Below are positions 825-62,392 of a stretch of 64,000 nt of DNA, piece after piece (the first letter of the stretch is position 1; every line of letters begins with the position of its first letter). The notes below the pieces were generated by a model. The model had not been told where the DNA came from, did no database searches, and was given only the letters and a program-made list of their open reading frames with translations. A program made the translations under genes and the position numbers. The DNA is from Candidatus Gastranaerophilales bacterium (GTDB lineage Bacteria; Cyanobacteriota; Vampirovibrionia; Gastranaerophilales; Gastranaerophilaceae): the NCBI GenBank assembly GCA_944324365.1, contig CALUWA010000006.1, positions 1,113 to 65,112 on the forward strand, in the 5' to 3' direction.

Positions 825-3503
825 ATGACAACAAAAAACAAAAAGACGGTCGATAATTTGGAAAAGGCTTTGAAAAGCTCTTCAAATTCCGTAGAGACTG
901 CCGAACAATTAGAGTTGCTTATTGAAAGAGTTAAGAAAGCTCAAAAGATTTATTCAACTTATACACAAGAACAGGTTGATGCGATATTCAAAGCTGCAGC
1001 AACTGCGGCTGATAAAGCTCGTATCCCGCTTGCAAGAATGGCTGTTGAAGAAACTGGTATGGGTGTTCTTGAAGATAAAATTATTAAGAACCACTTTGCA
1101 TCAGAATATATTTACAATAAACATAAACACGCTAAAACTTGCGGTATCATTAAAGAAGATAAAACAAACGGTATTAAAATTGTTGCTGAACCTCTCGGAG
1201 TTCTTGCAGGTATTGTTCCTACAACTAACCCGACTTCAACTGCAATTTTCAAAGCTTTAATTGCTTTAAAAACAAGAAACGCAATTATCTTTTCACCACA
1301 CCCAAGAGCAAAAAAATGTACAATTGAAGCTGCAAAAATAGTTTTAGAAGCTGCTGTAAAAGCAGGTGCTCCTGAAGATATTATCGGCTGGATTGACGTT
1401 CCTTCTATTGAGTTGTCAAGCCAGTTAATGCAGCACCCTTCAATTGCTTGTATCGTTGCTACAGGCGGCCCTGGAATGGTTAAGGCTGCTTATTCATCAG
1501 GCAACCCGGCACTTGGTGTAGGCCCTGGTAATGCTGCTGCTGTTATTGATGAAACCGCAGATATTAAAATGGCTGTTTCTTCAATTATTATGTCAAAAAC
1601 TTTTGATAACGGTATGATTTGTGCTTCAGAACAATCAGTTGTTGTTGTAGATAAAGTTTATGAAGAAGTTAAAAAAGAATTTATCTACAGAGGAGCTCAC
1701 TTGTTAACTCAGGCTGATGAAAAGAAATTAATTGCTCTTCCTTTCATTGACCCTAAACGCGGCACTGCTCATCCTGATATCGTTGGACAGACTGCTCACA
1801 GAATTGCAGAACTTGCAGGATTTGATGTTCCTCAAACTGCTAAACTTCTTCTTGCGGAAAGACCTTCAGTAGATTGGGAAGATCCGTTCTCAAGAGAAAA
1901 ATTGTCTCCGATATTGACGATGTATAAAGCAAAAGACTTTGAAGAAGCTGCAGAAATGGCTTATGAACTTGTTTCCAAAGGCGGTGCAGGCCATACAGCT
2001 GACTTGTATACTGATACACGTCGTCAGGAAAGAATTGACAGATATGCTGAAAAAATGCCGACTTGCAGAGTGTTGATTAACTCTCCATCTGCACAGGGCG
2101 GTATCGGTGATTTATATAACTTTAAACTTGAACCGTCACTTTCACTCGGCTGCGGTTCTTGGGGTAAAAACGCTGTTTCTGGTAACATCGGCGTTGAAAA
2201 CTTATTAAACTACAAGACAGTTGCAGAAAGGAGAGAAAATATGCTCTGGTTTAAGGTTCCGCCTAAAGTTTACTTCAAGAGAGGTTCAGTTGATTTAGCT
2301 CTCCGTGAACTTGAAGGCAAAAAACGTGCATTTATTGTAACCGACAGATTCTTATTTAACTCCGGTGCAGTTGATAGTATTGTTAATGTATTGGATGATA
2401 TCGGTATTGATCACCAAATCTTCTTTGATGTTAAACCGGATCCTACATTGTCTACAATCAGACAGGCTATGGAAATAATCAAACCGTACGAACCTGATGT
2501 AATTATCGCATTGGGCGGCGGTTCTCCGATGGATGCTGCTAAGATTATGTGGTTGATGTATGAACAGCCTGATACAGACTTCTCTGATATTTCTATGAGA
2601 TTTATGGATATCAGAAAGAGAATCTGCAGAATTCCTGAATTGGGTAAGAAGGCAACAATGGTTGCAATTCCTACAACATCAGGTACAGGTTCAGAAGTTA
2701 CTCCGTTTGCAATTATTACAGATGATGAAACTCACGTAAAATATGCAATCGCTGATTATGCATTAACTCCTAACATGGCTATCATTGACCCTAACTATGT
2801 TGATGGTATGCCAAAAGGATTAACAGCAGCTTCCGGTATTGATGCATTGGTTCACTCAACTGAAGCTTATGTATCATCAATGGCTACAAACTTTACAAAT
2901 TCAAATGCTTTGGAAGCTACAAAGTTAATCTTCAGATATCTTGAAAGATCATACAATGAAGGAGCTAACGATCCTGTTGCAAGAGAAAAAATGCATTACG
3001 CAGCAACAATAGCTGGTATGGCATTTGCAAACGCATTCTTGGGATTGTGCCACTCTATGGCTCACAAACTTGGTGCAATGTTCCACGTACCGCACGGTGT
3101 AGCTAACGCATTGTTATTCAGACAGGTTATCAAGTACAACGCTGTTGATTGTCCGAAAAAACAGGCAATCTTCCCGCAGTACAGATTCCCTAACGCTAAA
3201 GCTAAATATGCTCAAATCGCAGATGAGCTTGGTTTGGGCGGTAAGAATGATGATGAAAAAGTTGAATTATTCATAAAAGCTATTGAAGATTTAATGAAGA
3301 ATATCAACTTGCCATTCTCAATTAAAGAATTTGGTATTTCAGAAGCTGAATTCAATGAAAAATTGGATGAAATGGTTGAACTTGCATTTGACGATCAATG
3401 TACAGGTGCAAACCCGGCTTATCCGTTGATGGAAGATATTAAAGCTATCTACATCGATGCTTACAACGGTGTTGTAAGAGATTATTACAAGACTACAAAA
3501 TAG
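825..3503 (+). CDS. adhE: bifunctional acetaldehyde-CoA/alcohol dehydrogenase
   Basis: 892 aa. N-terminal aldehyde dehydrogenase domain (FDNGMICASEQS catalytic Cys region) fused to a C-terminal iron-containing alcohol dehydrogenase (GGGSPMDAAK; HSMAHKLG). SD is AAGGAG. Confidence 0.95.
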   Translation: MTTKNKKTVDNLEKALKSSSNSVETAEQLELLIERVKKAQKIYSTYTQEQVDAIFKAAATAADKARIPLARMAVEETGMGVLEDKIIKNHFASEYIYNKHKHAKTCGIIKEDKTNGIKIVAEPLGVLAGIVPTTNPTSTAIFKALIALKTRNAIIFSPHPRAKKCTIEAAKIVLEAAVKAGAPEDIIGWIDVPSIELSSQLMQHPSIACIVATGGPGMVKAAYSSGNPALGVGPGNAAAVIDETADIKMAVSSIIMSKTFDNGMICASEQSVVVVDKVYEEVKKEFIYRGAHLLTQADEKKLIALPFIDPKRGTAHPDIVGQTAHRIAELAGFDVPQTAKLLLAERPSVDWEDPFSREKLSPILTMYKAKDFEEAAEMAYELVSKGGAGHTADLYTDTRRQERIDRYAEKMPTCRVLINSPSAQGGIGDLYNFKLEPSLSLGCGSWGKNAVSGNIGVENLLNYKTVAERRENMLWFKVPPKVYFKRGSVDLALRELEGKKRAFIVTDRFLFNSGAVDSIVNVLDDIGIDHQIFFDVKPDPTLSTIRQAMEIIKPYEPDVIIALGGGSPMDAAKIMWLMYEQPDTDFSDISMRFMDIRKRICRIPELGKKATMVAIPTTSGTGSEVTPFAIITDDETHVKYAIADYALTPNMAIIDPNYVDGMPKGLTAASGIDALVHSTEAYVSSMATNFTNSNALEATKLIFRYLERSYNEGANDPVAREKMHYAATIAGMAFANAFLGLCHSMAHKLGAMFHVPHGVANALLFRQVIKYNAVDCPKKQAIFPQYRFPNAKAKYAQIADELGLGGKNDDEKVELFIKAIEDLMKNINLPFSIKEFGISEAEFNEKLDEMVELAFDDQCTGANPAYPLMEDIKAIYIDAYNGVVRDYYKTTK

Positions 3504-3521
3504 TTAATGTAAATAATAAGA

Positions 3522-3555
3522 AAAACCGCTCCGTATTCGGGGCGGTTTTCTTTTT
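3522..3555. terminator. bidirectional rho-independent terminator
   Basis: AAAACCGC-loop-GCGGTTTT hairpin followed by a T run, between convergent adhE and pilin-like A. Confidence 0.6.
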
Positions 3556-3562
3556 ACGGATA

Positions 3563-4720
3563 TTATTTCCAAGGATAGTCGTCTTTGAATGTCCAGCCGT
3601 CACCGGTGAATATTAGGAAACATAATGTAGGAAAGCCTCCGCCATAACTGGACTCTTTGCACATCTCTATAATATCATTTCTTGAAGATATATACATTCT
3701 TGGTAATCTCGGAATCTCAAATTTGCGATTTCCGGTGTTAAATACTGTGGCAATGTCAAAGACGTCACGGCCTACAATATTTGGGGCTTTTTGGCAATTA
3801 ACATCGGTTGTAAATGTTGCAAATTGGTTATTAGACCATAAAGTGATACAAGAGCCGTCTGCCAGTCTAAAGAATGCTCCTCTGGTAATTGAGCCGTCAT
3901 GAAAATATGCATCTTGCCCGTTAAAATTATATGCATGGTATGTATCTGTAAATTTATGAGCTCTGGCTCCGGATGTTCTCAGATACGGCATATAATATTT
4001 TTCTACAAATTCTGTTTGTGTAATTTTGGCCGGTATAGATTCGCCTGTATCCGGATCTGATGATGATATAGGCATATCCCAATATTCCATATCTCCGAAA
4101 TCTTTTACTGCCATTAAATGTGCGTTATATAAAAGAGAATATGTTCTTTTAAGTTGAGTAGCGGTAACAATTTTCTGGTACTTTGCTATAAGCATTGGCA
4201 TTGTCATAGCAGCGACAATACCGATAATGCCAAGGGTAATAAGAACTTCCGCAAGTGTGAAGGCTGCTTTTTCTTTTAGATCGCGGACAGGCTTACGCCT
4301 TCCGCGATGACATGCGGCAGGCAAGATGTACCATAGTTTGTCATCGCGTACTTCGTTGTGCGATCTTTTCTTCTGGATTGCTTCGCTAACTATCGGATTA
4401 TTCGGGTTGTCGCCGGAGTGACGTCCGGCTCCAACTTGCGGGCTGGGGCACTTCGTGCCACGGCACCCTTCCGAAAATCCGACCTCGCAATGACGCCTAA
4501 TGTCATCCTGAACTTGTTTCAGGATCTTACTACCATCGCAATGTGACAATTTGCTTTGGATACTCTTTTCCCGGATTGCTTCACTTCGTTCGCAATGACG
4601 TATGGTGTCATCCTTACAAAGCGAACCGCTGGTTACATTGTCATCCTGAGCGATAGCGAAGGATCTCTTATTTAATGAGATTCTTCGGGCTAAAGCCCTC
4701 AGAATGACAAAAGGCGTCAT
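3563..4720 (-). CDS. type IV pilin-like protein A (prepilin-type N-terminal methylation motif) with repeat-built extended leader
   Basis: KAA|FTLAEVLITLGIIGIVAAMTMP motif (F codon 4261-4259) followed by a 232-aa mature domain ending GDGWTFKDDYPWK; paralog of C. The N-terminal ~153 aa of the track ORF is a translation of palindromic repeats. The frame stays open upstream as far as the G tract at 4819-4830. True initiation is uncertain. Confidence 0.75.
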   Translation of the reverse strand: MTPFVILRALARRISLNKRSFAIAQDDNVTSGSLCKDDTIRHCERSEAIREKSIQSKLSHCDGSKILKQVQDDIRRHCEVGFSEGCRGTKCPSPQVGAGRHSGDNPNNPIVSEAIQKKRSHNEVRDDKLWYILPAACHRGRRKPVRDLKEKAAFTLAEVLITLGIIGIVAAMTMPMLIAKYQKIVTATQLKRTYSLLYNAHLMAVKDFGDMEYWDMPISSSDPDTGESIPAKITQTEFVEKYYMPYLRTSGARAHKFTDTYHAYNFNGQDAYFHDGSITRGAFFRLADGSCITLWSNNQFATFTTDVNCQKAPNIVGRDVFDIATVFNTGNRKFEIPRLPRMYISSRNDIIEMCKESSYGGGFPTLCFLIFTGDGWTFKDDYPWK

Positions 4721-4760
4721 TGCGAAACGCGAAGCGTTGAAGCAATCCAGAAAATTGCAA
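4270..4760. repeat. cluster of GC-rich GTCAT...ATGAC palindromic repeat modules inside the leader region of pilin-like A
   Basis: Modules seen: ATCGCGGA-N13-TCCGCGAT (4280-4308); GTCATCCTGAAC-TTG-TTTCAGGATC (4502-4526); GGATTGCTTC...GCAATGAC (~4573-4599); a 69-nt hairpin GTCATCCTGAGCG...CCCTCAGAATGAC (4640-4708); GTCATTGCGAAACGCGAAGCGTTGAAGCAATCC (~4716-4748). Homologous modules occur at 55562-55632 and 61012-61640. Confidence 0.85.
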
Positions 4761-4818
4761 TACCGGGTTTTAAAAGTGTCTAAAAGGCTGAAACTATCTC
4801 CAAAAGCGGAGAGTCTAG

Positions 4819-4830
4819 CCCCACCCCCCC
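4819..4830 (-). repeat. interrupted homopolymer (G7-T-G4 on coding strand) after the upstream ATG of pilin-like A
   Basis: Plus strand reads CCCC-A-CCCCCCC. It sits 14 codons after ATG 4871-4869 (SD GGAGG 4885-4881). As assembled, the frame stops at TAG 4817-4815. Confidence 0.9.
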
Positions 4831-4907
4831 TGGAGAATATAGGTATAATCAGTGTTTTCAGATTTTAACATTTGATATATCCTCCATAAATTCAAGTATC
4901 TGTTAAT

Positions 4908-4936
4908 ATTTTAACGTGTGTTTCTACATTTTTCAA
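4908..4936 (-). promoter_or_regulatory. sigma70-type promoter of pilin-like locus A
   Basis: Minus strand TTGAAA (4936-4931), 17-nt spacer, TAAAAT (4913-4908), about 35 nt upstream of ATG 4871. Near-identical module at locus C. Confidence 0.6.
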
Positions 4937-5029
4937 TATTAGATTTTTAATTAGCTCTCCAGATGTGTAATTGTATTTATAAAGTTTTGGTTTATGATAA
5001 TATTGTTTTTAAGATAAGGGAGAAATTTT

Positions 5030-5422
5030 ATGAAAAAAAATATTATCATAGTTTTGCTTGTATTGATTTTGCCGATTTTGGCATATATGTTCTTAAGTGC
5101 CGGGTCTGGCAGTGACATGGGGAGTGTAGATGCAAAAACTACAAAACCGCAGATTATAAAATTTACTTCTGCGATGTGTTTAGATTGCCAGACTATGAAT
5201 AAAATAATGAAAGAAATTTATCCGCAGTATCAGGATAGAATTGCCCTAACGGAAATCCATGTTCAGGATAATAAGCCGGAAACTCAGGATTGGATAAAAA
5301 AATACAATGTAACGCTTGTCCCTACGATTATTCTGATGAATTCACAAGGACAGCAGGTGCGTCGTATTGAAGGGGCTGTTGACAGAAATGTTTTTGAAGG
5401 ATACTTAAAGGAGCTTAAGTAA
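5030..5422 (+). CDS. thioredoxin-fold protein (TlpA/ResA-like), membrane-anchored
   Basis: N-terminal hydrophobic anchor and a CLDC (CxxC) motif in a thioredoxin-like context. Translationally coupled to ccdA. Confidence 0.75.
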   Translation: MKKNIIIVLLVLILPILAYMFLSAGSGSDMGSVDAKTTKPQIIKFTSAMCLDCQTMNKIMKEIYPQYQDRIALTEIHVQDNKPETQDWIKKYNVTLVPTIILMNSQGQQVRRIEGAVDRNVFEGYLKELK

Positions 5423-6126
5423 TGCTGAATTATGCGGATTTATTTACGGACGGAGCCAGTATTCCGCTTTTATATCTGATTTCTTTTCTCGGAGGCCTTG
5501 TCGCTTCAATATCGCCGTGTTCATTGGCTATGCTGCCTATAATTATAGGTTATGTAGGCGGATATTCCGATGCAAAGCCCTCAAAAACTTTTATGCAGCT
5601 TTTCTTTTTCATAATCGGTTCTGCAATTGTGTTTTCCGTGATTGGGATAATTTGTGCCGTGACCGGGAAAGTTTTTGTGTCATTTGCAGGAGGGTATTTT
5701 AGTGTAATTATCGCAAGTATTGTTTTAATTATGGGCTTAAAACTTGTCGGTGTGCTTGATTTTGAACTGCCTGTTTTAATAAAGGAAATGCCGAAAAACG
5801 ATGGTACCAGTAATTTTCTTTATCCGATTCTTTTAGGCGGTGTGGTGGCACTTGCGGGTACTCCCTGCTCAACTCCGATATTAGCTGCAATTATGGCTTT
5901 TGCCTCGCTTTCCGCAAGTCTGACCCAATCTGTCATTATGCTGTTTTTGTTCTCTTTGGGACAGGGTTTGATATTGGTGTTTGCCGGTGTTTTAACTTCG
6001 AAACTTAAAACCTGGAAAAATTTTTATAAGATTTCCGATTTGCTTTTGAAATTCAGCGGGATTTTATTAATATTAACGGCATTTTATATTTTTTATAAGA
6101 TTTTTGCGCCTCTGCTTGTAAAATAG
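5422..6126 (+). CDS. ccdA: cytochrome c biogenesis/thiol-disulfide transporter CcdA (DsbD transmembrane domain family)
   Basis: Polytopic membrane protein with the two conserved Cys motifs (ISPCSLAMLP and GTPCSTPIL). Start overlaps the upstream stop (TAATG). Confidence 0.85.
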   Translation: MLNYADLFTDGASIPLLYLISFLGGLVASISPCSLAMLPIIIGYVGGYSDAKPSKTFMQLFFFIIGSAIVFSVIGIICAVTGKVFVSFAGGYFSVIIASIVLIMGLKLVGVLDFELPVLIKEMPKNDGTSNFLYPILLGGVVALAGTPCSTPILAAIMAFASLSASLTQSVIMLFLFSLGQGLILVFAGVLTSKLKTWKNFYKISDLLLKFSGILLILTAFYIFYKIFAPLLVK

Positions 6127-10297: not shown

Positions 10298-11278
10298 TTG
10301 GTGTTTATGCTGATTTTAATTTTATTGATTGCGGTCGTAATTTATGTATTTAAGGGTATAATCATTGTTCAGCAGCAGCAGGAAGTGATTATTGAGCGTA
10401 TGGGACGTTATGAAAGAACACTTACTGCAGGGCTGAATTTCATTTTTCCTATTTTGGAAGCACCGCGTGGTATTTTGACAAAGGTTAGCCAAAGAGGTTT
10501 TGACGGGCAGACATATTATTTGTTAAAACAGGCAGATAGGATTGATAAACGTGAGCAGATGTATGATTTTCCTCGTCAGAATGTAATTACGGAAGATAAC
10601 GTTTCGATTACTATTAATGCGTTAATTTATTTCCAAATTATTGACTCAAAAAGTGCGGTATATGAGATCGCGAATTTGCCGGAAGCTATTGAAAAGCTTA
10701 CCCAGACAAATTTAAGAAACCTTGTAGGTCAAATGGATTTGCAAAAAACATTGACTTCCCGTAATACGATTAATACGGAACTTCGCACAATTCTTGATGA
10801 AGCAACAAACAAATGGGGTGTAAAAGTTAACCGTGTAGAAATTCAAGATATTTTCCCTCCTGCTGATATCCAAGCTTCAATGGATAAATTGATGAAAGCA
10901 GACAGAGAAAAAACCGCAACAATTACGGAAGCTGAAGGTTTGAAAGAAGCCGCAATAAGAAAAGCAGAAGGTGAAAAAGAAGCTGCTATTCGTTCTGCAG
11001 AAGGCGAAAAGCAGGCAGAAATTCTGCGAGCCGAAGGTGTTGCTCAAGCTCGTATTATTGAAGCCGAAGCGGAAAAAGAAGCTATTAATAAAATTATTGA
11101 GGCTTTTGCGGATAAAGGACAGCCTGATAAATACCTGATTGCAATGAAATATCTCGAAACTCTTGGTGATATCTCAAAAGGCCAGAATAACAAAGTTGTT
11201 TATATGCCTTACGAAGCGTCAGGAATTCTGGCTTCAGTTGATGGTATCAAGCAAATGTTTGATAAACCGGCAAAATAA
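10298..11278 (+). CDS. SPFH/band-7 (stomatin-like) protein
   Basis: N-terminal TM segment, SPFH core (IIVQQQQEVIIERMGRY...DNVSITINALIYFQI...) and a C-terminal AEGEKEAAIR coiled-coil repeat region. The start could instead be ATG 10307. Confidence 0.88.
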   Translation: MVFMLILILLIAVVIYVFKGIIIVQQQQEVIIERMGRYERTLTAGLNFIFPILEAPRGILTKVSQRGFDGQTYYLLKQADRIDKREQMYDFPRQNVITEDNVSITINALIYFQIIDSKSAVYEIANLPEAIEKLTQTNLRNLVGQMDLQKTLTSRNTINTELRTILDEATNKWGVKVNRVEIQDIFPPADIQASMDKLMKADREKTATITEAEGLKEAAIRKAEGEKEAAIRSAEGEKQAEILRAEGVAQARIIEAEAEKEAINKIIEAFADKGQPDKYLIAMKYLETLGDISKGQNNKVVYMPYEASGILASVDGIKQMFDKPAK

Positions 11279-11304
11279 ACAAATAAATAATATCATATCC
11301 AAAA

Positions 11305-11338
11305 ACAAGCGGGATTTATATATTTCCCGCTTGTTTTG
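11305..11338. terminator. bidirectional rho-independent terminator
   Basis: ACAAGCGGGA-loop-TCCCGCTTGT hairpin plus T run, between the SPFH gene (+) and pilin-like B (-). Confidence 0.6.
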
Positions 11339-11353
11339 TCTTTATTTCTTCTG

Positions 11354-12172
11354 CTAATGATTGCAGGTTCCATTATACTCCCAAGCTCCATAACCAGATG
11401 AGACCCACCATCCCCCGGCATTGACACAGGACTCATAATCCGTACAAAACTGCGGGGTTTCAGCAGAGCATTCCTGAACATCCGCGAGTTCCTCAGAAAT
11501 ATCGTAAAGCTGTCCTCCTTCGCCTGCGAACCTGAATTTAAGAAGGTCTTTGGTCGCAATGTTAGGGTTATTTTTTCCGTTAACATCGACAACAACATCG
11601 AAGGACGAGAAGGTATCATCTGGAATAACGCCGAAAATCATGCCGTCACCTGTTGTGAACATATAGAGCACATCATCCCAATTAAACGGCGACGGAGAGG
11701 CTTTGCCTTCGACGGCGTACGAGTCCGGGAGTCTTTCAGGCTGGAGCCCGTTAACAGAGTCGTTGATAACATTAAATGCATCTTTGTGTTCCTTAGAAAC
11801 GCAGTCTTTGTCTTCCATTTCGTTACACTTAGCCAAGAAAGGAAGATTAGCAACGTTAAAGATTTCGTAGTGCGCCATCATTAATTTATATCCGTTAGCG
11901 ACAATATTTTTGGCTTTTTTAGCCTGAGCCTCGAGAATAAGCTCCTGGACTTTGGTTTGGAGCATAGGCATGGTAAGTGCAGCGACAACACCAATAACGC
12001 CGAGAGTAATCAAAACTTCGGCTAAAGTGAATGCAGTCACATTGTTACGAGGAGCGGCCCCGAAGATATCTTCATACGCAATGTTATCGGATACAGGGTG
12101 AAAACGCTTGCCTAGCTTATGATTAAGTCCCCCCCCCCCCCCGGAGAAATCAGCTATAATTGAGTTTTTCAT
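11354..12172 (-). CDS. type IV pilin-like protein B, G-tract in frame (ON)
   Basis: SD AAAGGAGGA then ATG 12172. Leader is MKNSIIADFS-GGGGG-LNHKLGKRFHPVSDNIAYEDIFGAAPRNNVTA (47 aa), followed by |FTLAEVLITLGVIGVVAALTMP (F codon 12031-12029). Mature domain contains VDVNGKNNPNIATKDLL, related to the DxN(C/G)xxxPNxxG(R/K)D motif of A, C and E. Confidence 0.8.
   Translation of the reverse strand: MKNSIIADFSGGGGGLNHKLGKRFHPVSDNIAYEDIFGAAPRNNVTAFTLAEVLITLGVIGVVAALTMPMLQTKVQELILEAQAKKAKNIVANGYKLMMAHYEIFNVANLPFLAKCNEMEDKDCVSKEHKDAFNVINDSVNGLQPERLPDSYAVEGKASPSPFNWDDVLYMFTTGDGMIFGVIPDDTFSSFDVVVDVNGKNNPNIATKDLLKFRFAGEGGQLYDISEELADVQECSAETPQFCTDYESCVNAGGWWVSSGYGAWEYNGTCNH
12129..12142 (-). repeat. homopolymeric G14 tract inside the leader codons of pilin-like B
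   Basis: 14 consecutive C on the plus strand, translated as GGGGG. The length keeps the upstream ATG in frame with the pilin domain. Confidence 0.95.
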
Positions 12173-12248
12173 AAGTCCTCCTTTGAGAATTACAGTATAC
12201 ATTATAATTTTAACATATTTTAAAAATTTTTCAAGATTGCTTTTAAGT

Positions 12249-12656
12249 TCAGTGTTTTACAGAACAGTCTTTGCATTCTCCGTAAAGTTCAAACTTATGA
12301 CCGGTGATATTAAAGCCTGTTTCATCTGCCAATTTATTTTCCAATTCTTCCAGCGGGCAGCAGTCTATCGGAATCATTTTATGGCATTTTGTACAAATCA
12401 TATAATGCTTATGGGTTTCACGTACAAGTTCATATCTGGCTCTGTTATCATTCAGTGTTGTAGCTTTATTTACAATACCGAGAGTTACAAGTTTTTCAAT
12501 AATTCTGTATATTGTGGACAGCGAAATTTTTGGGATTTCTTCTTTTGCCATATTATAAATTTCTTCTGTCGTTATTGGACAATTCTGATGTTCAAGAATT
12601 TGCAATACCTTATCTCTGTTTTTTGACGCTCTGCAACCTTCTAATTTCTGCCGCAT
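12249..12656 (-). CDS. Fur-family metalloregulator (Fur/Zur/PerR type not resolvable)
   Basis: Winged-helix N-terminus, HKHY motif and two CxxC pairs (CTKC..., CKDC). ATG 12656 preceded by GAAAGGG is preferred over the track's GTG 12671. Confidence 0.85.
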   Translation of the reverse strand: MRQKLEGCRASKNRDKVLQILEHQNCPITTEEIYNMAKEEIPKISLSTIYRIIEKLVTLGIVNKATTLNDNRARYELVRETHKHYMICTKCHKMIPIDCCPLEELENKLADETGFNITGHKFELYGECKDCSVKH

Positions 12657-12752
12657 AATTAACCCTTTCACGATTATTTTAACATAATTTTTAAAAAATA
12701 TAGCAAAATAACTTGATTATTTTTATTTAAGTTGTCTAATTATAAATGCAAA

Positions 12753-12767
12753 TGCAAATCATTTGCA
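12753..12767. promoter_or_regulatory. perfect 7-1-7 palindrome, candidate auto-operator of the Fur-family gene
   Basis: TGCAAAT-C-ATTTGCA, embedded in AAATGCAAATGCAAATCATTTGCAATAAT about 100 nt upstream of the regulator's start. Confidence 0.5.
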
Positions 12768-12835
12768 ATAATAAAAATTGGAGATAAAATTATGCCGATT
12801 CCGAAAATAAGTTCAATAAAAGCAGGTGCTTATGC

Positions 12836-13525
12836 ACAGAGGATAACGTATCTATCACAATTAATGCTTTAATATATTTTCAGATAATTGATTCAAAAAG
12901 TGCGGTTTATGAGATTGCTAATTTGCCGGAAGCCATTGAAAAACTTACACAGACAAACTTAAGAAACCTTGTTGGTCAGATGGATTTGCAAAAGACACTG
13001 ACTTCACGTAACACAATTAATACGGAACTTCGTACAATCCTTGATGAAGCTACAAACAAATGGGGCGTAAAAGTCAACCGTGTAGAAATTCAAGATATTT
13101 TCCCTCCTGCTGATATCCAAGCTTCAATGGATAAATTGATGAAAGCAGACAGAGAAAAAACCGCAACAATTACGGAAGCTGAAGGTTTGAAAGAAGCCGC
13201 AATAAGAAAAGCAGAAGGTGAAAAAGAAGCTGCTATTCGTTCTGCAGAAGGCGAAAAGCAGGCTGAAATCTTAAGAGCGGAAGGTGTAGCGCAAGCTCGT
13301 ATTATCGAAGCTGAGGCAGAAAAAGAAGCTATTAACAGAATAATTGAAGCTTTCGCTGATAAAGGCCAGCCGGACAAATATTTGATTGCAATGAAATACC
13401 TTGAAACACTTGGTGATATTTCAAAGGGTCAAAATAACAAAGTTGTTTATATGCCGTATGAAGCATCCGGAATTTTGGCATCTGTCGACGGTATTAAGCA
13501 GATGTTTGATAAACCTGCAAAGTAG
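12836..13525 (+). pseudogene. 5'-truncated duplicate of the SPFH gene (last 229 codons)
   Basis: Collinear with 10589-11278 (offset 2247). The encoded peptide is identical except K->R. It lacks the N-terminal ~97 codons, TM segment, SD and ATG. Upstream it joins out of frame to a 26-codon ORF starting ATG 12792. Confidence 0.75.
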
Positions 13526-18173: not shown

Positions 18174-21100
18174 ATGTCTAAAAAATTATCGAAGATGAGT
18201 ATCGCAGCTTTAGTTATTGCTTTTTCTGTAGCTACAAGTGCCAGAGCTGGTGATATTACTGGAATTACCGGAGTTGGTGGTGTGTTTGATATTAGTCCTT
18301 CAAGGATTAATGGAGAAGCTGGTCTTAGAGAATATACAAATTTTAGATTAGATCAAGGTGAGGTTGCAAACCTGATTTTTAAATACGGCAATCAAGATAT
18401 TTCAAAATTCGTAAACCTTGTCGATAATCAAATTAATATTAACGGTTTGGTCAACACTGTAAGAAACGGACAATTTTATCCTGGCGAAGCAATATTTGTA
18501 TCTCCAAATGGTATGGTTGTAGGTGAATCAGGTGTTTTGAATGTTGGTTCATTATCTGTTTTGACTCCGACTGCACCGGGTATGAAAATGTTTAAAGATG
18601 GTAAAGCTACATTAGAAGAACTTGGTTACCATGGTAATTCGAATATAACAGTTAACGGTATGGTTCTTGCCCGTAATAATATAGGAATGGTCGCAAGAGA
18701 TTTGACCGTAGGGCCTAATGCTGCTTTAGTTGCCGGCATGGGTACAGGCTATAATACTTTGGTAAATAATTCCCAGCAAGCTTCCGATTTATTTAATCAG
18801 CTTGTAAATACTGGTAAAAATTCAAGCAGTGCAAATATTGAGTTAAGAACATATAACAGAGACGGCGCAGGTACTAACGGTATGAATATCCAAGGCGATG
18901 TTATAAATCATGGTACCGGCGATATTGTTATGATAAACCGCGGCGCAGGATTTAATACATCAGGCGGTCATATAACAGCTCATGGCGGTGATGTTTATCT
19001 TACTAATGGCAATGGAGCAATGAATGTTAACAGTACAGTTTCTGCGGATAGCATTTATATTGCTGGTGGTTCTAATGCCGGTGGTATAAATATTGATTCG
19101 GATTTGTCCGGAAAAGATTTAGTTCAAATTGTTCATAATGGTTCAGGTAATACCTCTGTGGATGGTGATATTTCAGGACAAGGTAACGTTTATATAACAG
19201 AACGTAGTGGAAATTTGGCTATTAACGGTGATATTACAAATGCTAATGGTAATGTTGTTATTGCAAGTAACGGTACAGGTTTGACTATCGGAGATAGTTC
19301 AGTTATTTCAAATAATAATAAAATTCAAATTGCAAATACCGGTAGAAATGGTATTACATTAGATGGCCAGGTTAAAAATTCAGGTAGTACCGCAATTACA
19401 AACCGTTCCGGTAATTTCAACATAAACGGTTCTGTGGAAAACACATCCGGAAAAATGAATATTACAAATACAGGTAATAAACTTACTTTAGGCACTTCTT
19501 CGTCAATTGTCGGCGGCGGAGATGAGTTATTAATCCAAAATACAGGTGCCGGCGGTTTTGAGGCTAACGGTACAATTCAAAATACAGCATCAACCTTCCT
19601 TCAAAATACCAATGGTGCGATGAATGTTAACGGCACAATTACAAATTCCGGCGACGTTCTTTATATAGCAAATACCAGAAACGGTTCAGGTTTAACTATT
19701 GGACAGAATGCCAATATATCAAATGATAATTCTCTCCAAATCCTGAATACAGGTGCTAACGGTATGACAATCGGCGGTACAATTTATAATGACCATAATT
19801 ATGAAAGAGGTACCGCGATTACAAATCGTGCCGGTAATATGGTTGTTAATGCCAAAATAACAAGCAAAGATGGTAATATAAATCTTACCAATGTCGGTAA
19901 TGGCGGTCTGACAATTGGTAACAGTGCAGAAATCGGTTCTGGTAACGGTGAATTGACTGTTCAAAATACTGGTAACGGCGGTTTGACTGTAAACGGTACT
20001 GTTAATAATAAAGGTACTGCATTTGTATACAATAAGACCGGCGATATGAACGTTAATGGTAAGATTGTTAATTCCCAGGGCGGTCTTTACATTACAAATG
20101 ATGGTAATGCAATGAATCTTAATGAAGGTTCTGCAGTCAGAGTAGCCGGCCAAGGTGCAAAACTTAATATTCTTAACCGAGGCGATGGCGGTATGAAGAT
20201 TAGCGGCAATGTTGCAGATACCGGTAAAACTCTTATTACAAACGTAAAAGGTGATTTCGATATTGATGGTGTTATCAGCAACAAATCAGGTCAGTTAAAT
20301 ATTACCAATAACGGTAATAAGTTGACCATAGCAGAAGGTGCCAGCATATCAAACGATACAAACAGAATTTATATAACAAATAAAGGTGCCGGTGGTATGG
20401 ATGTAAACGGCCAGGTTGTTGGTCAGGGGCATATACTTCTTACTAACAGAAATGGCGGCATGAAAGTATCTTCAAATGTTACATCCGGTAAGGCAAATGT
20501 TGTATTAACAAATACCGGGAATGAAGATATGGTTGTCAATGGTACAGTTACCGGACAAAAGGTTACAGCAACAAGTAAAGGCAATGATATGATTCTTGGC
20601 AACACTGAAACTGATCAGGTTGCGATAAACGGTACTCAAAAAGTTGCAATTACTGTTGAAAACGGCAGCCTGAAAAATGCCGGCAGCGAAGCTGATTTAA
20701 TTAAATCTAATGGAAATTTGTTTGTAAATGTTACAAACGGTACAATTGGCGAAGAATCCGCAACCAAAGATTTGACAAAATCAGTAAATGTTAACATTGG
20801 CGGTAGAATTAAAGCCTTTACAAATAACCGTGATGGTTCAAACAATGACTACAGCATAAATATGGCAAGCCAAAATGCCGATATGAATGTTGACAGAATC
20901 AAAGCTGACGGTACATTAAGATTGGATACAACCGGCTCAATCTTAAATGCATCAACTGATCTTGCAAACTATGCAAACGTTAAAGGTACAACACTTCAAT
21001 TATATGCTGATCAATACATCGGTACCGCAGATAATGCATTGCATTTCCGTCAAACAGATGCGTCTCAGAAATCAAATGTGGTTGCAGGCAGAGATGTTAA

Positions 21101-21311
21101 CCTTCACCATCGTGGCGAAGCTGTTGGTGAAAATGTTAACTTTGATACTATCGGCTCTAAAACCGGTAATGTCACTGCAGATATCATCAAAGACGGTGTA
21201 ATTGATAATGTAATTGCTCCGGGATCTATTAATGTTACATCCCGTAGACAGGATGCTAATCTTGAGATTAAAAATCAATCAAATGATACATCATTAATCA
21301 AAGATTACTAA
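18174..21311 (+). CDS. filamentous-haemagglutinin-type (TPS domain) beta-helical exoprotein
   Basis: Signal peptide, then a TPS/haemagglutination-activity region (FVNLVDNQININGLV...AIFVSPNGMVVGESGVLNVGSL). About 800 aa of periodic N/G/T-rich repeats follow (NGxI.N..G...I.N.G.GLTIG). No TpsB gene in the window. Confidence 0.8.
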   Translation: MSKKLSKMSIAALVIAFSVATSARAGDITGITGVGGVFDISPSRINGEAGLREYTNFRLDQGEVANLIFKYGNQDISKFVNLVDNQININGLVNTVRNGQFYPGEAIFVSPNGMVVGESGVLNVGSLSVLTPTAPGMKMFKDGKATLEELGYHGNSNITVNGMVLARNNIGMVARDLTVGPNAALVAGMGTGYNTLVNNSQQASDLFNQLVNTGKNSSSANIELRTYNRDGAGTNGMNIQGDVINHGTGDIVMINRGAGFNTSGGHITAHGGDVYLTNGNGAMNVNSTVSADSIYIAGGSNAGGINIDSDLSGKDLVQIVHNGSGNTSVDGDISGQGNVYITERSGNLAINGDITNANGNVVIASNGTGLTIGDSSVISNNNKIQIANTGRNGITLDGQVKNSGSTAITNRSGNFNINGSVENTSGKMNITNTGNKLTLGTSSSIVGGGDELLIQNTGAGGFEANGTIQNTASTFLQNTNGAMNVNGTITNSGDVLYIANTRNGSGLTIGQNANISNDNSLQILNTGANGMTIGGTIYNDHNYERGTAITNRAGNMVVNAKITSKDGNINLTNVGNGGLTIGNSAEIGSGNGELTVQNTGNGGLTVNGTVNNKGTAFVYNKTGDMNVNGKIVNSQGGLYITNDGNAMNLNEGSAVRVAGQGAKLNILNRGDGGMKISGNVADTGKTLITNVKGDFDIDGVISNKSGQLNITNNGNKLTIAEGASISNDTNRIYITNKGAGGMDVNGQVVGQGHILLTNRNGGMKVSSNVTSGKANVVLTNTGNEDMVVNGTVTGQKVTATSKGNDMILGNTETDQVAINGTQKVAITVENGSLKNAGSEADLIKSNGNLFVNVTNGTIGEESATKDLTKSVNVNIGGRIKAFTNNRDGSNNDYSINMASQNADMNVDRIKADGTLRLDTTGSILNASTDLANYANVKGTTLQLYADQYIGTADNALHFRQTDASQKSNVVAGRDVNLHHRGEAVGENVNFDTIGSKTGNVTADIIKDGVIDNVIAPGSINVTSRRQDANLEIKNQSNDTSLIKDY

Positions 21312-52862: not shown

Positions 52863-52868
52863 GTAAAA

Positions 52869-54874: not shown

Positions 54875-55702
54875 TTACTTCCACGGATAATCGTCTTTGA
54901 TTTGCCAGCCATCGTAAACTATTATCGCAAAACAAGCTGCTTGTTTGCCTCCATTGTATGTGTGTGTTTTGCAGCCGGAGTTGTTCATTATTTGTTCTCT
55001 AGGAAATGATTTAAACGCATCAAGTCCTGCAATAAATGGTTTTTTGTTGTTCATGTAATATAATTCAAAAATATCAAAAATATCCCTGCCGTATATATTT
55101 GGGCCTTTTTCACAATTTAAATCTGTCGTTAATACAACATACTGATTATTAGACCACAGTGTAAGACAAGAGCCATCGGACATTCTGAAGGAGCTGCCTC
55201 TGCCATGAACATTATCGTATTGAATATCTTGTCCGTTAAAATTGTATGCTTTGTATAATCCGGATTTCTTTTTCTGATGCTGCAGGTACGGCAGATAATA
55301 TCTTTCAAGAAATTCATCATTAGTTATACTTCTTTGGTTATTTTCATCAGTAATCGGGTAGTCCCAGTATATTGAATCCCCGTAATCATTAACCGCCATC
55401 TGGTAAGCATTAGAAAGGAGTGAATAAGTTCTTTTAAGCTGGGTAACAGTCACGAGTTTTTGGTACTTTGCAATTAACTGCGGCAAAGTCATTGCCGCGA
55501 TAATTCCGATTATGCCGAGGGTAATAAGGACTTCCGCTAACGTGAATGCTGCTTTCTTTTTGTCATCCTGAGGATGAAATCCGAAGGATCTCTTGCTTAA
55601 TGAGATTCTTCGGGCTTTGCCCTCAGAATGACGATTGGTGTTCTTCTTACAAAGGAAGCCGCCAATAATCCAAGAAGCATTGTAATGTCGTACCTCAGGC
55701 AC
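54875..55702 (-). CDS. type IV pilin-like protein C, upstream start out of frame (OFF as assembled)
   Basis: KKKAA|FTLAEVLITLGIIGIIAAMTLP (F codon 55546-55544). The mature domain is a paralog of A and ends YDGWQIKDDYPWK. The track start is a GTG without an SD. The frame is open upstream to the G12 tract. Confidence 0.78.
   Translation of the reverse strand: MPEVRHYNASWIIGGFLCKKNTNRHSEGKARRISLSKRSFGFHPQDDKKKAAFTLAEVLITLGIIGIIAAMTLPQLIAKYQKLVTVTQLKRTYSLLSNAYQMAVNDYGDSIYWDYPITDENNQRSITNDEFLERYYLPYLQHQKKKSGLYKAYNFNGQDIQYDNVHGRGSSFRMSDGSCLTLWSNNQYVVLTTDLNCEKGPNIYGRDIFDIFELYYMNNKKPFIAGLDAFKSFPREQIMNNSGCKTHTYNGGKQAACFAIIVYDGWQIKDDYPWK
55562..55632. repeat. 71-nt GTCATCCTGAGG...CCTCAGAATGAC palindromic module inside the leader of pilin-like C
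   Basis: Imperfect long hairpin. Same module as 4640-4708 and 61044-61111. Translated in the pilin frame as HSEGKARRISLSKRSFGFHPQDD. Confidence 0.85.
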
Positions 55703-55788
55703 TCGGGCTTCGCCATCAGAATGACGACATAGCGCGGACTTTAACCTGTCTAAAAGGCTGGAACTTTCTCCAAAAGCGGAGAGCCTAG

Positions 55789-55800
55789 CCCCCCCCCCCC
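55789..55800 (-). repeat. homopolymeric G12 tract after the upstream ATG of pilin-like C
   Basis: 12 consecutive C on the plus strand, starting 14 codons after ATG 55841-55839 (SD GGAGG 55855-55851). The assembled phase terminates at TAG 55787-55785. Confidence 0.95.
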
Positions 55801-55877
55801 TGGAGAATACCGGTATAATCAGTGTTTTCAGATTTCAACATTTCGTATATCCTCCATAATTTCAAGCTTCTGTTAGT

Positions 55878-55906
55878 ATTATAACGTATTTTTTGATATA
55901 TTTCAA
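55878..55906 (-). promoter_or_regulatory. sigma70-type promoter of pilin-like locus C
   Basis: Minus strand TTGAAA (55906-55901), 17-nt spacer, TATAAT (55883-55878). Confidence 0.65.
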
Positions 55907-61295: not shown

Positions 61296-61348
61296 AATAG
61301 AAAAGGAGGATATAGATATGCAAAAGTCAAGTATAGCGCGGAAACACC

Positions 61349-61358
61349 GGGAGGGGGG
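61349..61358 (+). repeat. interrupted G tract (G3-A-G6) after the upstream ATG of pilin-like D
   Basis: Located 10 codons after ATG 61318. The assembled frame stops at TAA 61369-61371. Confidence 0.9.
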
Positions 61359-61603
61359 TATCTGCATCTAAGTCAGGGCAAGGGTTTGTGCCCGTTTGCC
61401 ATTGCGGCGAGCCTGAGGCTCTACACTATGACGCTGCGCTTCGTGGAATGCTACAATTAATCCAAGAGAAGAGATCGCGGACAAACCTTTGGTTTTCCGC
61501 GATGACATGTGGCTGGCGGAAGGTTCCAAAACCTGTCATCACGCACTTGTTGCGCGATCTATGAATTGCTTCGTCGCAAGCTCCTCGCAATGACGAGAAA
61601 TAT

Positions 61604-62392
61604 TTGCTTAGCAACCCTTTACTGAAAATCCGACCTTGCAATGACAGGAAAAAGAGTTTCTTCGGATTTCATCCTCAGAATGACATAGCAAAGAAAGCGG
61701 CGTTTACGCTTGCGGAGGTGCTGATTACGCTTGGTATAATCGGTGTAATCGCAGCATTGACATTACCCGGACTGCTTGCAGAGTATTCAAAGGTTGTGGT
61801 TGAAACAAAATTAAAAAAATTCTATTCCCAGATAAATCAGGCAGTACAGTTATCAGAAGCAGAGTATGGGGATAGAGCATACTGGCATCTTGGCGTAAAT
61901 ACTCTGGAATTTGATGAGAATGGAAAACCTATTCCGGGTACATCTTCTGTTGAGCAATGGTTTATGAAGTATATAGCTTCTCATATGACAGTAATTAAAG
62001 TTGATTATGATGATAATGCCAGACCAACGTTTTATTTTAAAGATGGTACGGCCTTAAAGCAAATGAATGGTTCTATCCAATCTTCTCATGAGGATTGGAA
62101 TCAGGATTGGATGTTTTATACTTCAAATCCGGAAAAATGTGAAAAGTTATATGGTTCTGAATATAAAGCACGAGGTCGATGCAGTTTTGCATTTATGTAT
62201 TTGACTGTTAGCGATGATCCTGCCTATAAAAATTTGGTAGGTAAAGGATTTGAGCCTTATAAGTATCGTTGGGATGGAACTGTTCGCTATTTTAAGGAAA
62301 GATGTAAAACTCAGCCTGAATACTGCACAGCCTGGATTCATTTGAACGGGTGGAAAATTCCTGATGATTATCCGTTTAAGGTTTCTTATTAA
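61604..62392 (+). CDS. type IV pilin-like protein D (possibly silent or decayed expression site)
   Basis: AKKAA|FTLAEVLITLGIIGVIAALTLP. C-terminus NGWKIPDDYPFKVSY is related to A and C. The track start is a TTG without an SD. The pilin frame is open back to the G tract except for one TGA at 61562-61564. Confidence 0.7.
   Translation: MLSNPLLKIRPCNDRKKSFFGFHPQNDIAKKAAFTLAEVLITLGIIGVIAALTLPGLLAEYSKVVVETKLKKFYSQINQAVQLSEAEYGDRAYWHLGVNTLEFDENGKPIPGTSSVEQWFMKYIASHMTVIKVDYDDNARPTFYFKDGTALKQMNGSIQSSHEDWNQDWMFYTSNPEKCEKLYGSEYKARGRCSFAFMYLTVSDDPAYKNLVGKGFEPYKYRWDGTVRYFKERCKTQPEYCTAWIHLNGWKIPDDYPFKVSY

Follow-up and report, generated by a model that had tools for sequence, protein, structure and literature searches.

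In Neisseria, pilC1 and pilC2 undergo phase variation through a poly-G tract in the region coding for the signal peptide (Jonsson et al. 1991, via PMC5354566). This tract lies a few codons past the start, within the N-terminal signal that is cleaved from a pilus protein, and frameshifts toggle the paralogs independently. Contingency loci of Campylobacter, Helicobacter and Neisseria likewise carry G or C tracts of 8-14 nt in the 5' coding region of surface-structure genes, with length polymorphism between strains and occasional interrupted tracts that lock the phase (PMC8355987, PMC5084427). Among type IV pilins, described prepilin leaders have 6-26 aa, or ~15-30 aa in type IVb, and some type IVa leaders reach 18 residues (PMC4471445); those of Streptococcus sanguinis were termed "very long", and class III signal peptides require Ala or Gly at position -1 (PMC10191384). 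Rickettsia palindromic elements (RPEs) and intragenic MITEs are ~50-150 nt modules inserted in coding sequences, in frame, stop-free and polymorphic between relatives; RPEs are scattered in unrelated housekeeping genes, are translated within the host protein and stay in the mature product (PMC10969869).

We analyzed a 64,000-nt stretch of Gastranaerophilales DNA (the window) and found a locus, designated locus A, that resembles each of these systems and also differs from each. We estimate a probability of roughly 0.75 that locus A encodes a prepilin whose expression is phase-variable by slipped-strand changes of a G tract, and in which palindromic repeats have come to lie, tolerated or co-opted, in a very long leader that is translated and then removed by prepilin peptidase. 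Locus A probably belongs to a family of such switchable genes, all coding for type IV pilin-like (DUF6613) proteins, in a gut bacterium of the Gastranaerophilales (Melainabacteria). The position of its tract, the predicted toggling by frameshift and the independent paralogs are as in pilC. However, PilC serves as an adhesin at the pilus tip and has a Sec signal peptide rather than being a class III prepilin, and its mature protein directly follows the tract, whereas at locus A ~185 codons of repeat-derived leader intervene; the host here is a gut commensal melainabacterium. The tracts of Campylobacter, Helicobacter and Neisseria occur in many kinds of genes, but here they were found in one gene family, at a fixed 24-40 nt after the start, throughout the order. 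Unlike RPEs, several modules cluster within each gene, in a single segment that is predicted to be cut off; as in RPEs, they would be translated with the host gene. The basic hydrophilic leader, Gly/Ala at -1, Phe at +1, Glu at +5 and the alpha1N helix are shared with type IVb pilins and S. sanguinis PilE; in contrast, the leaders here have 47, ~100 and ~203 aa (loci B, C and A, respectively). In a limited literature search, we found no earlier report of G/C contingency tracts in prepilin leaders or in Melainabacteria, and nothing describing such a system in work on Melainabacteria/Gastranaerophilales pilin phase variation, DUF6613 or unusually long prepilin leaders.

Table 1. Features of locus A and of the paralogous loci in the window. 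A slash marks the predicted cleavage site.
Feature	Position	Strand	Basis
Putative sigma-70-like promoter, TTGAAA-17-TAAAAT	4908..4936	-	Top promoter match in 3450-5100, 10/12 positions
SD GGAGG (4885-4881) and leader start ATG (4871-4869)	4869..4885	-	Read from sequence
OFF-phase ORF, 18 codons, MLKSENTDYTYILQGGWG, ending at TAG 4817-4815	4815..4871	-	Translation
Interrupted tract, G7 (4830-4824)-T (4823)-G4 (4822-4819)	4819..4830	-	Sequence read
Repeat-built leader coding region, 557 nt, 0 stops in pilin frame	4262..4818	-	Stop counts, shuffles, RNA fold, repeats, strain indels
In-frame ATG within repeat, without SD; start of 385-aa mechanical ORF	4718..4720	-	ORF list, start search
Predicted prepilin cleavage motif K-E-K-A-A/F(+1), F codon 4261	4259..4276	-	Pfam N_methyl match spans site
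Mature pilin-like protein, 232 aa + stop, FTLAEVLITLGIIGIVAA..., DUF6613 globular part	3563..4261	-	PF20318 in orthologs, N_methyl, invariant columns, model
GC-rich hairpin with T runs on either side, putative terminator shared by adhE and the pilin gene	3522..3549	.	Listed on + strand
Locus C: promoter 55906-55878, ATG 55841, G12 55800-55789 (OFF), F codon 55546	54875..55906	-	
Locus B, same design without repeats: ATG 12172, G14 12142-12129, F codon 12031	11354..12172	-	
Locus D, decayed copy: ATG 61318, degenerate tract G3AG6 61349-61358, F codon 61703	61318..62392	+	

The start module of locus A is not unique to this gene (Table 1). Its promoter layout recurs at locus C and in other species, and its combination of SD and ATG was found again at locus C. 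The promoter-to-tract segments of the two loci (4770-4936 and 55740-55906) are 86% identical over 167 nt, close to the ~88% that a first-pass annotation of this DNA had judged by eye. That annotation had also placed both loci in the same OFF phase, in agreement with an ATG-to-F distance of 1 mod 3 at both (F being the +1 Phe codon). The ATG at 4871 is the sole SD-linked start able to reach the pilin frame and is located upstream of the tract, where, as in simple-sequence-repeat contingency loci, a change in tract length shifts the reading frame. As read from the sequence, the allele in the window is OFF. A net change of -1 or +2 nt in the tract would be needed to turn it ON; one base less fuses the 18-codon ORF to the 557-nt stop-free frame up to KEKAA/FTLAEV. 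The longest unbroken run in this allele is G7, compared with the ~8 nt or more expected of a contingency tract, and the G-to-T split into G7 and G4 probably lowers the switching rate, as the first-pass annotation had proposed and as would be reasonable in view of other contingency loci, leaving the allele semi-locked in the OFF phase. The T at 4823 could in principle be a poly-G sequencing error of low-coverage assemblies, yet the same G7TG4 tract is carried by an independent assembly (L088) that differs at 2 SNPs, both in the leader.

In the proposed mechanism, transcription would begin at the promoter and translation at the ATG of this module, and the ribosome would enter the poly-G tract after 14 codons. 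With 11 or 14 G's, it would continue for ~185 codons through hairpin-forming repeats to KEKAA/FTLAEV, giving a precursor of ~435 aa; the hydrophilic, positively charged leader would be kept in the cytoplasm, and prepilin peptidase would cut between Ala(-1) and Phe(+1). With 12 or 13 G's, the ribosome would meet a stop just after the tract and no pilin would be made, there being no other usable start. We infer leader translation, leader cleavage and assembly of the product into filaments from comparisons of DNA sequence.

Upstream of the F codon (4261-4259), the pilin frame stays free of stops over 201 codons, including all 557 nt between tract and F codon, which agrees with the stop-free path reported in the first-pass annotation. 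The other two forward frames of this segment contain 9 and 16 stops, and the reverse frames 7, 6 and 8. Only 5 of 20,000 dinucleotide-preserving shuffles of the 557 nt had no stop (mean 7.9 stops, p ~2.5e-4), the same order of magnitude as the 1e-4 that had been roughly estimated for chance, and the leader peptide quoted with that estimate was correct on re-translation. A different genetic code and a chance ORF were considered and rejected, as neighboring genes translate normally and the shuffle test speaks against chance. The leader of ~203 aa, counted from the only SD-linked ATG, far exceeds the 6-30 aa of short leaders. It is hydrophilic and basic, with a net charge of +11, and the leaders of 83 homologs have a mean net charge of +7 with a TM-like segment in none; these properties fit a cytoplasmic leader. 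A Pfam scan of the whole ON-form revealed no domain within the leader.

Neither an SD-bearing in-frame start nor a promoter-like site was detected between the repeats and the F codon, by a start search and a promoter scan of 3450-5100. A transcription or translation start mapped in this region had been named as evidence that would count against the original reading, and the sequence offers no candidate for either. It had been left undecided whether the whole leader is translated or ribosomes are only kept running through it. Since there is no restart site before F, ribosomes that cross the leader must make a leader-pilin fusion, and the alternatives merge into one. The in-frame ATG within the repeat (Table 1) is probably not a real start. 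A database protein of 385 aa (P0001, 100% identical) begins at this ATG, and an exact-protein look-up of the 385-aa mechanical ORF returned no match. This ATG, two in-frame TTGs of the same leader and one in-frame GTG of the locus C leader were rejected as starts, all being without an SD.

The protein downstream of the leader has the hallmarks of a class III prepilin: the predicted leader ends in Ala, followed by Phe(+1) and Glu(+5) and a hydrophobic alpha1N segment of the expected ~20-25 residues (FTLAEVLITLGIIGIVAAMTMPMLIA), with a mean maximum 19-residue Kyte-Doolittle hydropathy of 2.3. The motif KEKAA/FTLAEV (4276-4244) is invariant in the four window paralogs and 51 homologs. Scores for Pfam N_methyl (PF07963; IPR012902) were 21.0 bits for locus A, just below the cut-off of 21.2, 26.7 for locus C, which passes, and 19.2 and 20.0 for loci B and D. 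Matches to PF20318 (DUF6613) were taken from precomputed annotation of locus A orthologs; our own scan gave no DUF6613 profile match for the copy in the window. Pilins have a "lollipop" fold with a C-terminal disulfide; here, the globular part contains two invariant Cys residues, C211 and C224. An AlphaFold model (pLDDT 82.6) consists of a 53-residue N-terminal helix (residues 13-65) and a beta-sheet, and a Foldseek search of this model against the PDB found no match at E <= 0.001, solved pilins included. No type IV pilus machinery gene was present among the ten window ORFs scanned; a Gastranaerophilus genome encodes pilA, B, C, T and D (PMC5877343). Some family members in other species have ordinary leaders, MKKG/F or MKKRNA/F. 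The mature part was intact in all strains compared and evolves fast, with pN/pS of 0.6 and pS of 0.21 beside an adjoining neighbor gene that is 100% identical, which suggests strong host or phage pressure on the predicted filaments.

We further compared alleles of the same species in metagenome contigs that were reached via identical neighbor proteins. In seven assemblies, the locus A tract was G12 (three), G13, G7TG4 (two) and a single 6-G run. Locus C tracts were G10, G11, G12 (seven) and G13, and locus B tracts had 13, 14 and up to 16 G's, plus G4TG7 twice. Tract length is thus polymorphic among near-identical strains with conserved flanks. The first-pass annotation had called for an alignment of orthologs to look for unbroken tracts and a conserved frame, and both were found: locus A orthologs with an unbroken G12 or G13 have tract-to-F distances of 557, 521, 509 and 452 nt with differing repeat content, locus C has eight different distances from 149 to 488 nt, and in every allele of both loci the distance is 2 mod 3 with no stop. 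At locus A, 2-nt and 1-nt indels compensate each other, and the segment between them is read in different frames in different strains, both open. Indels between strains at locus C measure 297, 156, 93, 90, 66, 51, 18, 6, 3 and 3 nt, all multiples of 3, although this overstates the number of independent tests, since recombination or short-read misassembly at GTCATTSYGAGG cores would keep the frame automatically. Many indels were seen to sit between short in-phase direct repeats of this core. In strain L001/L086, locus A has a deletion that begins with the -10 hexamer and takes in the SD and the ATG.

Both ON and OFF alleles of the gene family occur in nature. The locus C allele of L095 has G11 and a continuous ORF of 362 aa from the leader ATG, and locus B is ON in L116 and in the window, both with G14. 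Database ORFs of 377-413 aa (P0005, P0020, P0024 and P0025) start MLKSENT...GGGARLSAFG and continue through leaders of 133-183 aa to KKAA/FTLAEV; database ON forms begin MLKSENT.YT.ILQGGGARLSAFG. No ON allele of locus A itself was present among the seven assemblies. Consensus alleles were OFF in 25 of 28 cases in this species. As for the paralogs in the window, the locus C leader includes 242 nt of repeats with 0 stops, and a stop codon directly follows the tract at both loci A and C. The repeat leader of locus D contains one TGA (61562-61564) that is specific to the window and is TGG in other strains.

An order-wide survey counted 43 pilin loci that carry a G or C tract no shorter than 9 nt. 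In 35 of them, no stop lies between tract and F; where these open loci have 30 nt or more of intervening sequence (32 loci), the other two frames contain 198 and 149 stops. For 38 of the 43 tracts, an SD and start precede the tract by 12-54 nt, in most cases by 24-40 nt. Unrelated leaders without repeats, in dozens of species, were likewise open exactly from tract to F. Comparisons of strains and species therefore document the anatomy of the locus, tract-length polymorphism, conservation of frame and stop-free reading, and ON alleles. The first-pass annotation had taken the open leader as a sign of translation or selection, and the in-frame strain indels, the closed repeat copies outside leaders (see below) and these loci of the order strengthen that proposal; they support the view that the open frame through the repeats is selected since ribosomes must translate it. 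Among reference genomes of other species, 28 of 31 loci with an assignable start were OFF. This share and the 25 of 28 in this species exceed the two-thirds expected from random phase.

The leader of locus A contains both inverted and direct repeats and is built of palindromic modules with the cores GTCATTSYGA, CAGGATGAC and GAAGCAATCC. Modules are shared among 4300-4750, 55560-55730 and 61090-61690, and repeat cores in the window are confined to, or adjoin, three pilin leaders, including one adjacent intergenic stretch. Over 80 loci of the order, 32 of 58 repeat core matches lay within 300 nt upstream of F. The RNA of the leader stretch has a minimum free energy of -220 kcal/mol, compared with -154 +/- 6.5 in shuffles (z = -10); no Rfam family was detected in it at gathering and E-value thresholds, the only hits in the window being two tRNAs. 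As in RPE-like elements and MITEs, these are hairpin-forming modules that are repeated in the genome and lie in frame without stops in a presumably translated region, but they are not dispersed through many unrelated genes or intergenic regions. CAGGATGAC-type modules always occur in one frame. At 60640-61270, repeat DNA of the same type that belongs to no leader contains 4-14 stops per frame, all six being closed. The repeats had been called mobile-looking, which holds only in the sense of presence/absence polymorphism between strains; terminal inverted repeats with target-site duplications, the hallmarks of transposition, were not demonstrated. The strain indels end within short direct repeats (GTCATTSYGAGG; GGATGACA...CGTCATTGCGA), a pattern that recombination explains at least as well as transposition.

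Several other explanations of locus A were considered. The tract might be a recoding site, at which nominally OFF alleles (G12 here, C10 or G10 elsewhere) would be expressed by ribosomal frameshifting on GGG/CCC or by RNA polymerase slippage; the tract would then set the level of expression and the leader would still be translated. Runs of one codon allow re-pairing. GGG is expected to be rare at 37% GC, and the stop that directly follows the tract at loci A and C, the excess of OFF alleles in reference genomes and in this species, and the finding that 10 of 11 C10 loci, from different species, are exactly one nt short of ON all agree with recoding. We nevertheless regard it as unlikely, because the shift needed varies (+1 at loci A, C and D, -1 at C10 loci), both OFF phases are seen at one locus, and tract length varies between strains in the DNA itself, with true in-frame alleles. 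Moreover, GGC, the final 0-frame codon ahead of the stop, is unable to re-pair in +1, and no conserved stimulatory element was established. Programmed frameshifting was rejected as a general mechanism on account of the inconsistent phase among loci and is kept as a minor rival.

It appears still less probable that the N-terminal extension is translated and not removed, or that the product is no filament subunit, i.e., that it is a bitopic membrane protein, with a cytoplasmic domain derived from repeats and the DUF6613 domain outside the cytoplasm. The model that matched no solved pilin, the scanned window ORFs with no pilus machinery gene, and a leader length without precedent among prepilin peptidase substrates would be consistent with such a protein. 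However, the class III motif is present in full and without variation ([KR]-x-A-A/F-T-L-A-E-V, then ~20 hydrophobic residues), members in other species have ordinary leaders, and pilD is encoded in the order. In addition, the leader sequence is unconserved even between strains, with frames swapped, which argues against a functional domain. We consider it very improbable that the open frame was never selected for translation and is a by-product of intrinsically open modules spread by in-phase recombination, or due to chance, the gene being a start-less pseudogene or silent cassette. The in-phase direct repeats at indel ends, the single frame in which modules such as CAGGATGAC occur, the nonsense codon and degenerate tract of locus D, and strains without the promoter/ATG module would fit this explanation. 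Yet the modules have stops in other frames and are closed in all six outside leaders, compensating 2+1-nt indels occur, the mature part is intact and full-length ON ORFs exist, leaders without repeats show the same open path in dozens of species, and the shuffle probability is low at locus A alone.

Under the preferred reading of a phase-variable prepilin with a discarded leader, selection on the leader seems mainly to maintain an open path in the right frame and not an amino acid sequence, so that the leader could gather and reshuffle palindromic modules. If translated, the leader exceeds the longest described in this protein class ~7-8-fold; if it is also cleaved, class III signal peptides and prepilin peptidase tolerate a much wider range than the reviewed 6-30 aa, and the leader provides a neutral "sink" in which selfish palindromic DNA can persist inside a coding region. 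More tentatively, Gastranaerophilales prepilins with giant leaders of 50-200 aa may be a dedicated harbor for such repeats, which would colonize and recombine in one discarded coding segment; prepilin peptidase would then act on leaders that surpass all known ones by an order of magnitude. They might even have been co-opted, as an extremely structured, start-less 0.5-kb leader would allow pilin synthesis only via the tract-gated ATG (a tight OFF state) and might serve as homologous sequence through which paralogs exchange leaders and pilin bodies. The family suggests that these non-photosynthetic relatives of cyanobacteria have a large repertoire of pilin-like surface proteins, each switchable on its own; the ON/OFF state may be read straight from metagenomes. 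Gene callers start these pilin genes at arbitrary internal ATGs or miss them; over 115 homolog clusters, the called leader has a median of 68 aa.

At locus A, the pilin frame was free of stops for 201 codons upstream of the codon for Phe(+1) (F, 4261), spanning the whole 557-nt stretch from the G tract to F. In this stretch (48% GC; the window has 37%), the other forward frames contained 9 and 16 stops and the reverse frames 7, 6 and 8, and zero stops occurred in 5 of 20,000 dinucleotide-preserving shuffles. The open frame is a real, non-random feature; the first-pass annotation had reported a stop-free path of ~190 codons in the pilin frame and a chance of about 1e-4, in line with these counts. 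The leader was also strongly self-complementary (MFE -220 kcal/mol; shuffles -154 +/- 6.5, z = -10). The elements listed in that annotation (promoter, SD, ATG, tract and open frame) were all found in the sequence, and the promoter-to-tract module, judged by eye to be ~88% identical to that of the paralogous pilin-like locus C, was 86% identical when computed. Loci A and C each carried one G over the in-frame length and hence share the OFF phase (ATG out of the pilin frame), as had been proposed. The G-to-T interruption, which leaves runs of 7 and 4, should slow switching at locus A, judging from other contingency loci.

Setting, start module and tract of locus A (window coordinates)
Feature	Position	Strand	Remark
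Locus A	between adhE (825-3503) and thioredoxin/DsbD pair (5030-6126)	minus	
Promoter TTGAAA-17-TAAAAT	4936-4908	minus	top promoter-like site of the region
SD GGAGG	4885-4881	minus	ATG at 4871
ATG-frame ORF MLKSENTDYTYILQGGWG	ends at TAG 4817-4815	minus	translation
Tract	G7 (4830-4824), T (4823), G4 (4822-4819)	minus	

The alternative of a start downstream of the repeats, raised in the same annotation, found no candidate: the few in-frame ATG, GTG and TTG codons inside the leaders of loci A and C had no SD, and no promoter-like site was found between the repeats and F at locus A. The 385-aa mechanical ORF of locus A starts at an ATG within a hairpin module (4720), where a 100% identical database protein of 385 aa (P0001) likewise begins.

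Using identical neighbour proteins as anchors, we recovered orthologs of locus A from six more assemblies and about ten each of locus C and the paralogous loci B and D. Locus A tracts were G12 (three), G13, G7TG4 (the window and L088) and one 6-G run, with tract-to-F distances of 557, 521, 509 and 452 nt, and locus C tracts were G10, G11, G12 (seven) and G13, with distances of 149, 242, 356, 365, 446, 449, 452 and 488 nt. All distances were 2 mod 3 and no leader had a pilin-frame stop; the ortholog alignment suggested earlier thus revealed uninterrupted G12/G13 tracts at locus A and a conserved pilin frame, stop-free throughout. Indels by alignment were 297, 156, 93, 90, 66, 51, 18, 6, 3 and 3 nt at locus C, and at locus A one of 111 nt and one 2 + 45 + 1-nt combination. 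In this combination, strains differ in the frame used for the segment flanked by the 2-nt and 1-nt indels, and both frames are open. Selection thus seems to target openness of the leader frame and not the peptide sequence. Many indel borders coincided with short in-phase direct repeats (GTCATTSYGAGG), at which recombination or short-read misassembly would preserve the frame without selection. Misassembly is disfavoured, since several leader variants (557, 452, 449 and 242 nt) were found twice each in independent samples.

Among 80 related loci of other species, a G or C tract (at least 9 nt, within 650 nt upstream of F) was present at 43, and ordinary leaders, e.g., MKKG/F or MKKRNA/F (slash, cleavage site), occurred at some of the 80. 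The pilin frame had no stops from tract to F at 35 of the 43 tract-bearing loci; at the 32 open loci where tract and F are 30 nt or more apart, 198 and 149 stops were counted in the other two frames. For 38/43 tracts, a start codon with an SD was present 12-54 nt upstream (24-40 nt in most cases), with a TTGACA-type promoter further upstream. These open frames and starts argue that the tract-in-leader design is a clade trait, with locus A an extreme in leader length. Called leaders in the best 115 motif-bearing homolog clusters had a median of 68 aa and were 12 aa or shorter in only 6; the described range is 6-30 aa (PMC4471445).

One sub-family had poly-C tracts in place of poly-G, read as PPP (L005, L011, L025, L034, L042, L044, L047, L056 and L063), located 25-440 nt upstream of F and in 10/11 cases from different species exactly C10, one nucleotide short of ON. 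L051 (around position 2519) was an exception: its C10 tract was 564 nt upstream, and its +1 frame, not the pilin frame, was open over all 188 codons, which suggests an assembly error or an additional frameshift close to F. Many Gastranaerophilales pilin leaders also contained a duplicated pseudo-N-terminus (MKK..AFTLAE-GATHV..N..R.AA/FTLAEVLITLG), 100-150 nt before the F codon, which is near locus position 2510 (L015, L018, L025, L032, L065, L077, L079 and L084). This arrangement resembles a duplication of target-site type, with the pilin 5' end on both sides of a ~50-nt insert, and may reveal how leaders lengthen.

Both ON and OFF alleles were observed. The locus C allele L095 (G11) formed a continuous 362-aa ORF, in which the gene caller began at the leader ATG. 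At locus B, G14 gave the in-frame state in this window and L116; the locus was out of frame elsewhere (G13 or G16), and its tract was interrupted (G4TG7) in two low-coverage assemblies (L121 and L124); this second G-to-T interruption is either a recurring event or poly-G attracting G-to-T miscalls. When locus A, reconstructed in its ON form, was searched against the database, it retrieved P0005, P0020, P0024 and P0025 (377-413 aa), all of which open with MLKSENT.YT.ILQGGGA(R/K)LSAFG and have a repeat-derived leader of 133-183 aa, followed by KKAA/FTLAEV and differing pilin bodies. Comparison of P0005 with P0020 and of P0025 with P0027 revealed a near-identical 183-aa leader on two different bodies, and one body behind two different leaders; the KKAAFTLAEVLITLGIIG junction is conserved, and recombination there is suggested. 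Irreversible OFF states were represented by deletions removing the SD, ATG and -10 hexamer at locus A (L001/L086) or the promoter/ATG module, including SD and ATG, at locus D (L108/110/112), and by a window-specific TGA in the locus D leader (61562-61564; TGG in other strains). Within locus D (61318-61703), the tract was degenerate, G3AG6, as in other strains.

Consensus alleles were OFF much more often than two-thirds of the time; among the 35 loci open from tract to F, only 3 reference-genome alleles were ON. Expression may be selected against in the gut, or the members of a large family may be expressed one at a time. A degree of slippage on the tract, ribosomal or transcriptional, could also account for the excess and would suit the ten of eleven C10 loci from different species that are one nucleotide short of ON, but we keep it as a minor explanation because the direction of the needed shift is inconsistent between loci.

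Core repeat motifs in the window were confined to 4300-4750, 55560-55730 and 61090-61690, within or beside pilin leaders, and 32/58 core matches across the order lay within 300 nt upstream of F. All ten CAGGATGAC cores in leaders were in one frame, read as QDD. The only stretch of this repeat type outside any leader (60640-61270, ~630 nt, upstream of the locus D promoter) had stops in every frame (forward 14, 8 and 4; reverse 5, 11 and 8), unlike the leaders, a comparison the first-pass annotation had proposed. No Rfam family matched the repeats.

The 232-aa protein following KEKAA/F at locus A has the class III signal-peptide core FTLAEVLITLGIIGIVAAMT. Pfam N_methyl was borderline for locus A (21.0; cut-off 21.2) and passed for locus C; PF20318 (DUF6613) is on record for orthologous proteins, and in our scan of the window copies locus D alone reached threshold. 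Phe+1, Glu+5 and two C-terminal Cys were invariant across 51 homologs. An AlphaFold model (pLDDT 82.6) consisted of a 53-residue N-terminal helix and a beta-sheet and had no significant match in a PDB neighbour search, so the product is designated pilin-like by sequence motif, not by fold. The mature part (3566-4261; compared with L001-L003 and L085-L088) was highly divergent (pS 0.21, pN 0.12, pN/pS 0.60), AdhE was 100% identical in the same strains, and the last 44 leader codons were far more conserved than the mature part (pS 0.06). AdhE, thioredoxin and other window proteins had identical copies on human-gut metagenome contigs, and relatives of its pilin-like genes were nearly confined to genomes of Candidatus Gastranaerophilales / Melainabacteria. 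Ten scanned window ORFs included no type IV pilus machinery genes; a Gastranaerophilus genome is reported to contain pilB, C, D and T (PMC5877343).

The ON leader of locus A would have 203 aa, a net charge of +11 and no TM-like segment; 83 homologous leaders had a mean charge of +7 and a 19-residue hydropathy of at most 1.6. These properties fit prepilin topology, in which the leader remains cytoplasmic and cleavage, on the inner face, follows a Gly or Ala (PMC4471445, PMC10191384). We propose that slipped-strand mispairing at the tract would switch the gene. In the ON state, the ribosome would translate the leader, repeats included; the alpha1N helix would then enter the membrane and prepilin peptidase would take off the leader. 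In the OFF state, translation would stop at TAG 4817, followed by ~0.55 kb of RNA that is highly structured and lacks a start. Strain and order comparisons, shuffles and the lack of other starts support the interpretation in the first-pass annotation that the whole leader is translated or that selection keeps ribosomes running through it. To a specialist, the surprise would be a prepilin leader of ~200 aa predicted to be translated. Locus A is related to surface filament genes that undergo phase variation and to palindromic repeats inside genes, both of them known kinds. It would work like Neisseria pilC, with a poly-G tract in its signal-peptide coding region (PMC5354566), and like contingency loci of the Campylobacter type. 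Rickettsia RPEs (PMC10969869) are a parallel for the in-frame palindromic repeats, which here are instead concentrated in the segment predicted to be discarded. Our literature search found nothing on leaders this long, on DUF6613 or on phase variation of Melainabacteria pilins.

Additional features were observed in the window. At 10298-13525, two copies of a Band_7/SPFH gene, one full (10298-11278) and one truncated at its 5' end (12923-13525), flanked the Fur gene and locus B and had a common 300-nt stretch (90% identity); in other strains Fur had another neighbour on one side, and the cassette may be the result of a move or an insertion. Tandem 207-nt units (52344-52943; two complete copies with 96% identity, then the beginning of a third) adjoined tRNA-Arg(CCT) and tRNA-Arg(CCG) and had in common a tRNA 3'-end-like sequence; no further tRNA was called. 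A 1045-aa ORF (18174-21311), with no Pfam match and internal repeats 200-600 nt apart (motif NGNGAMNVNGT), possibly encodes a repetitive surface protein.
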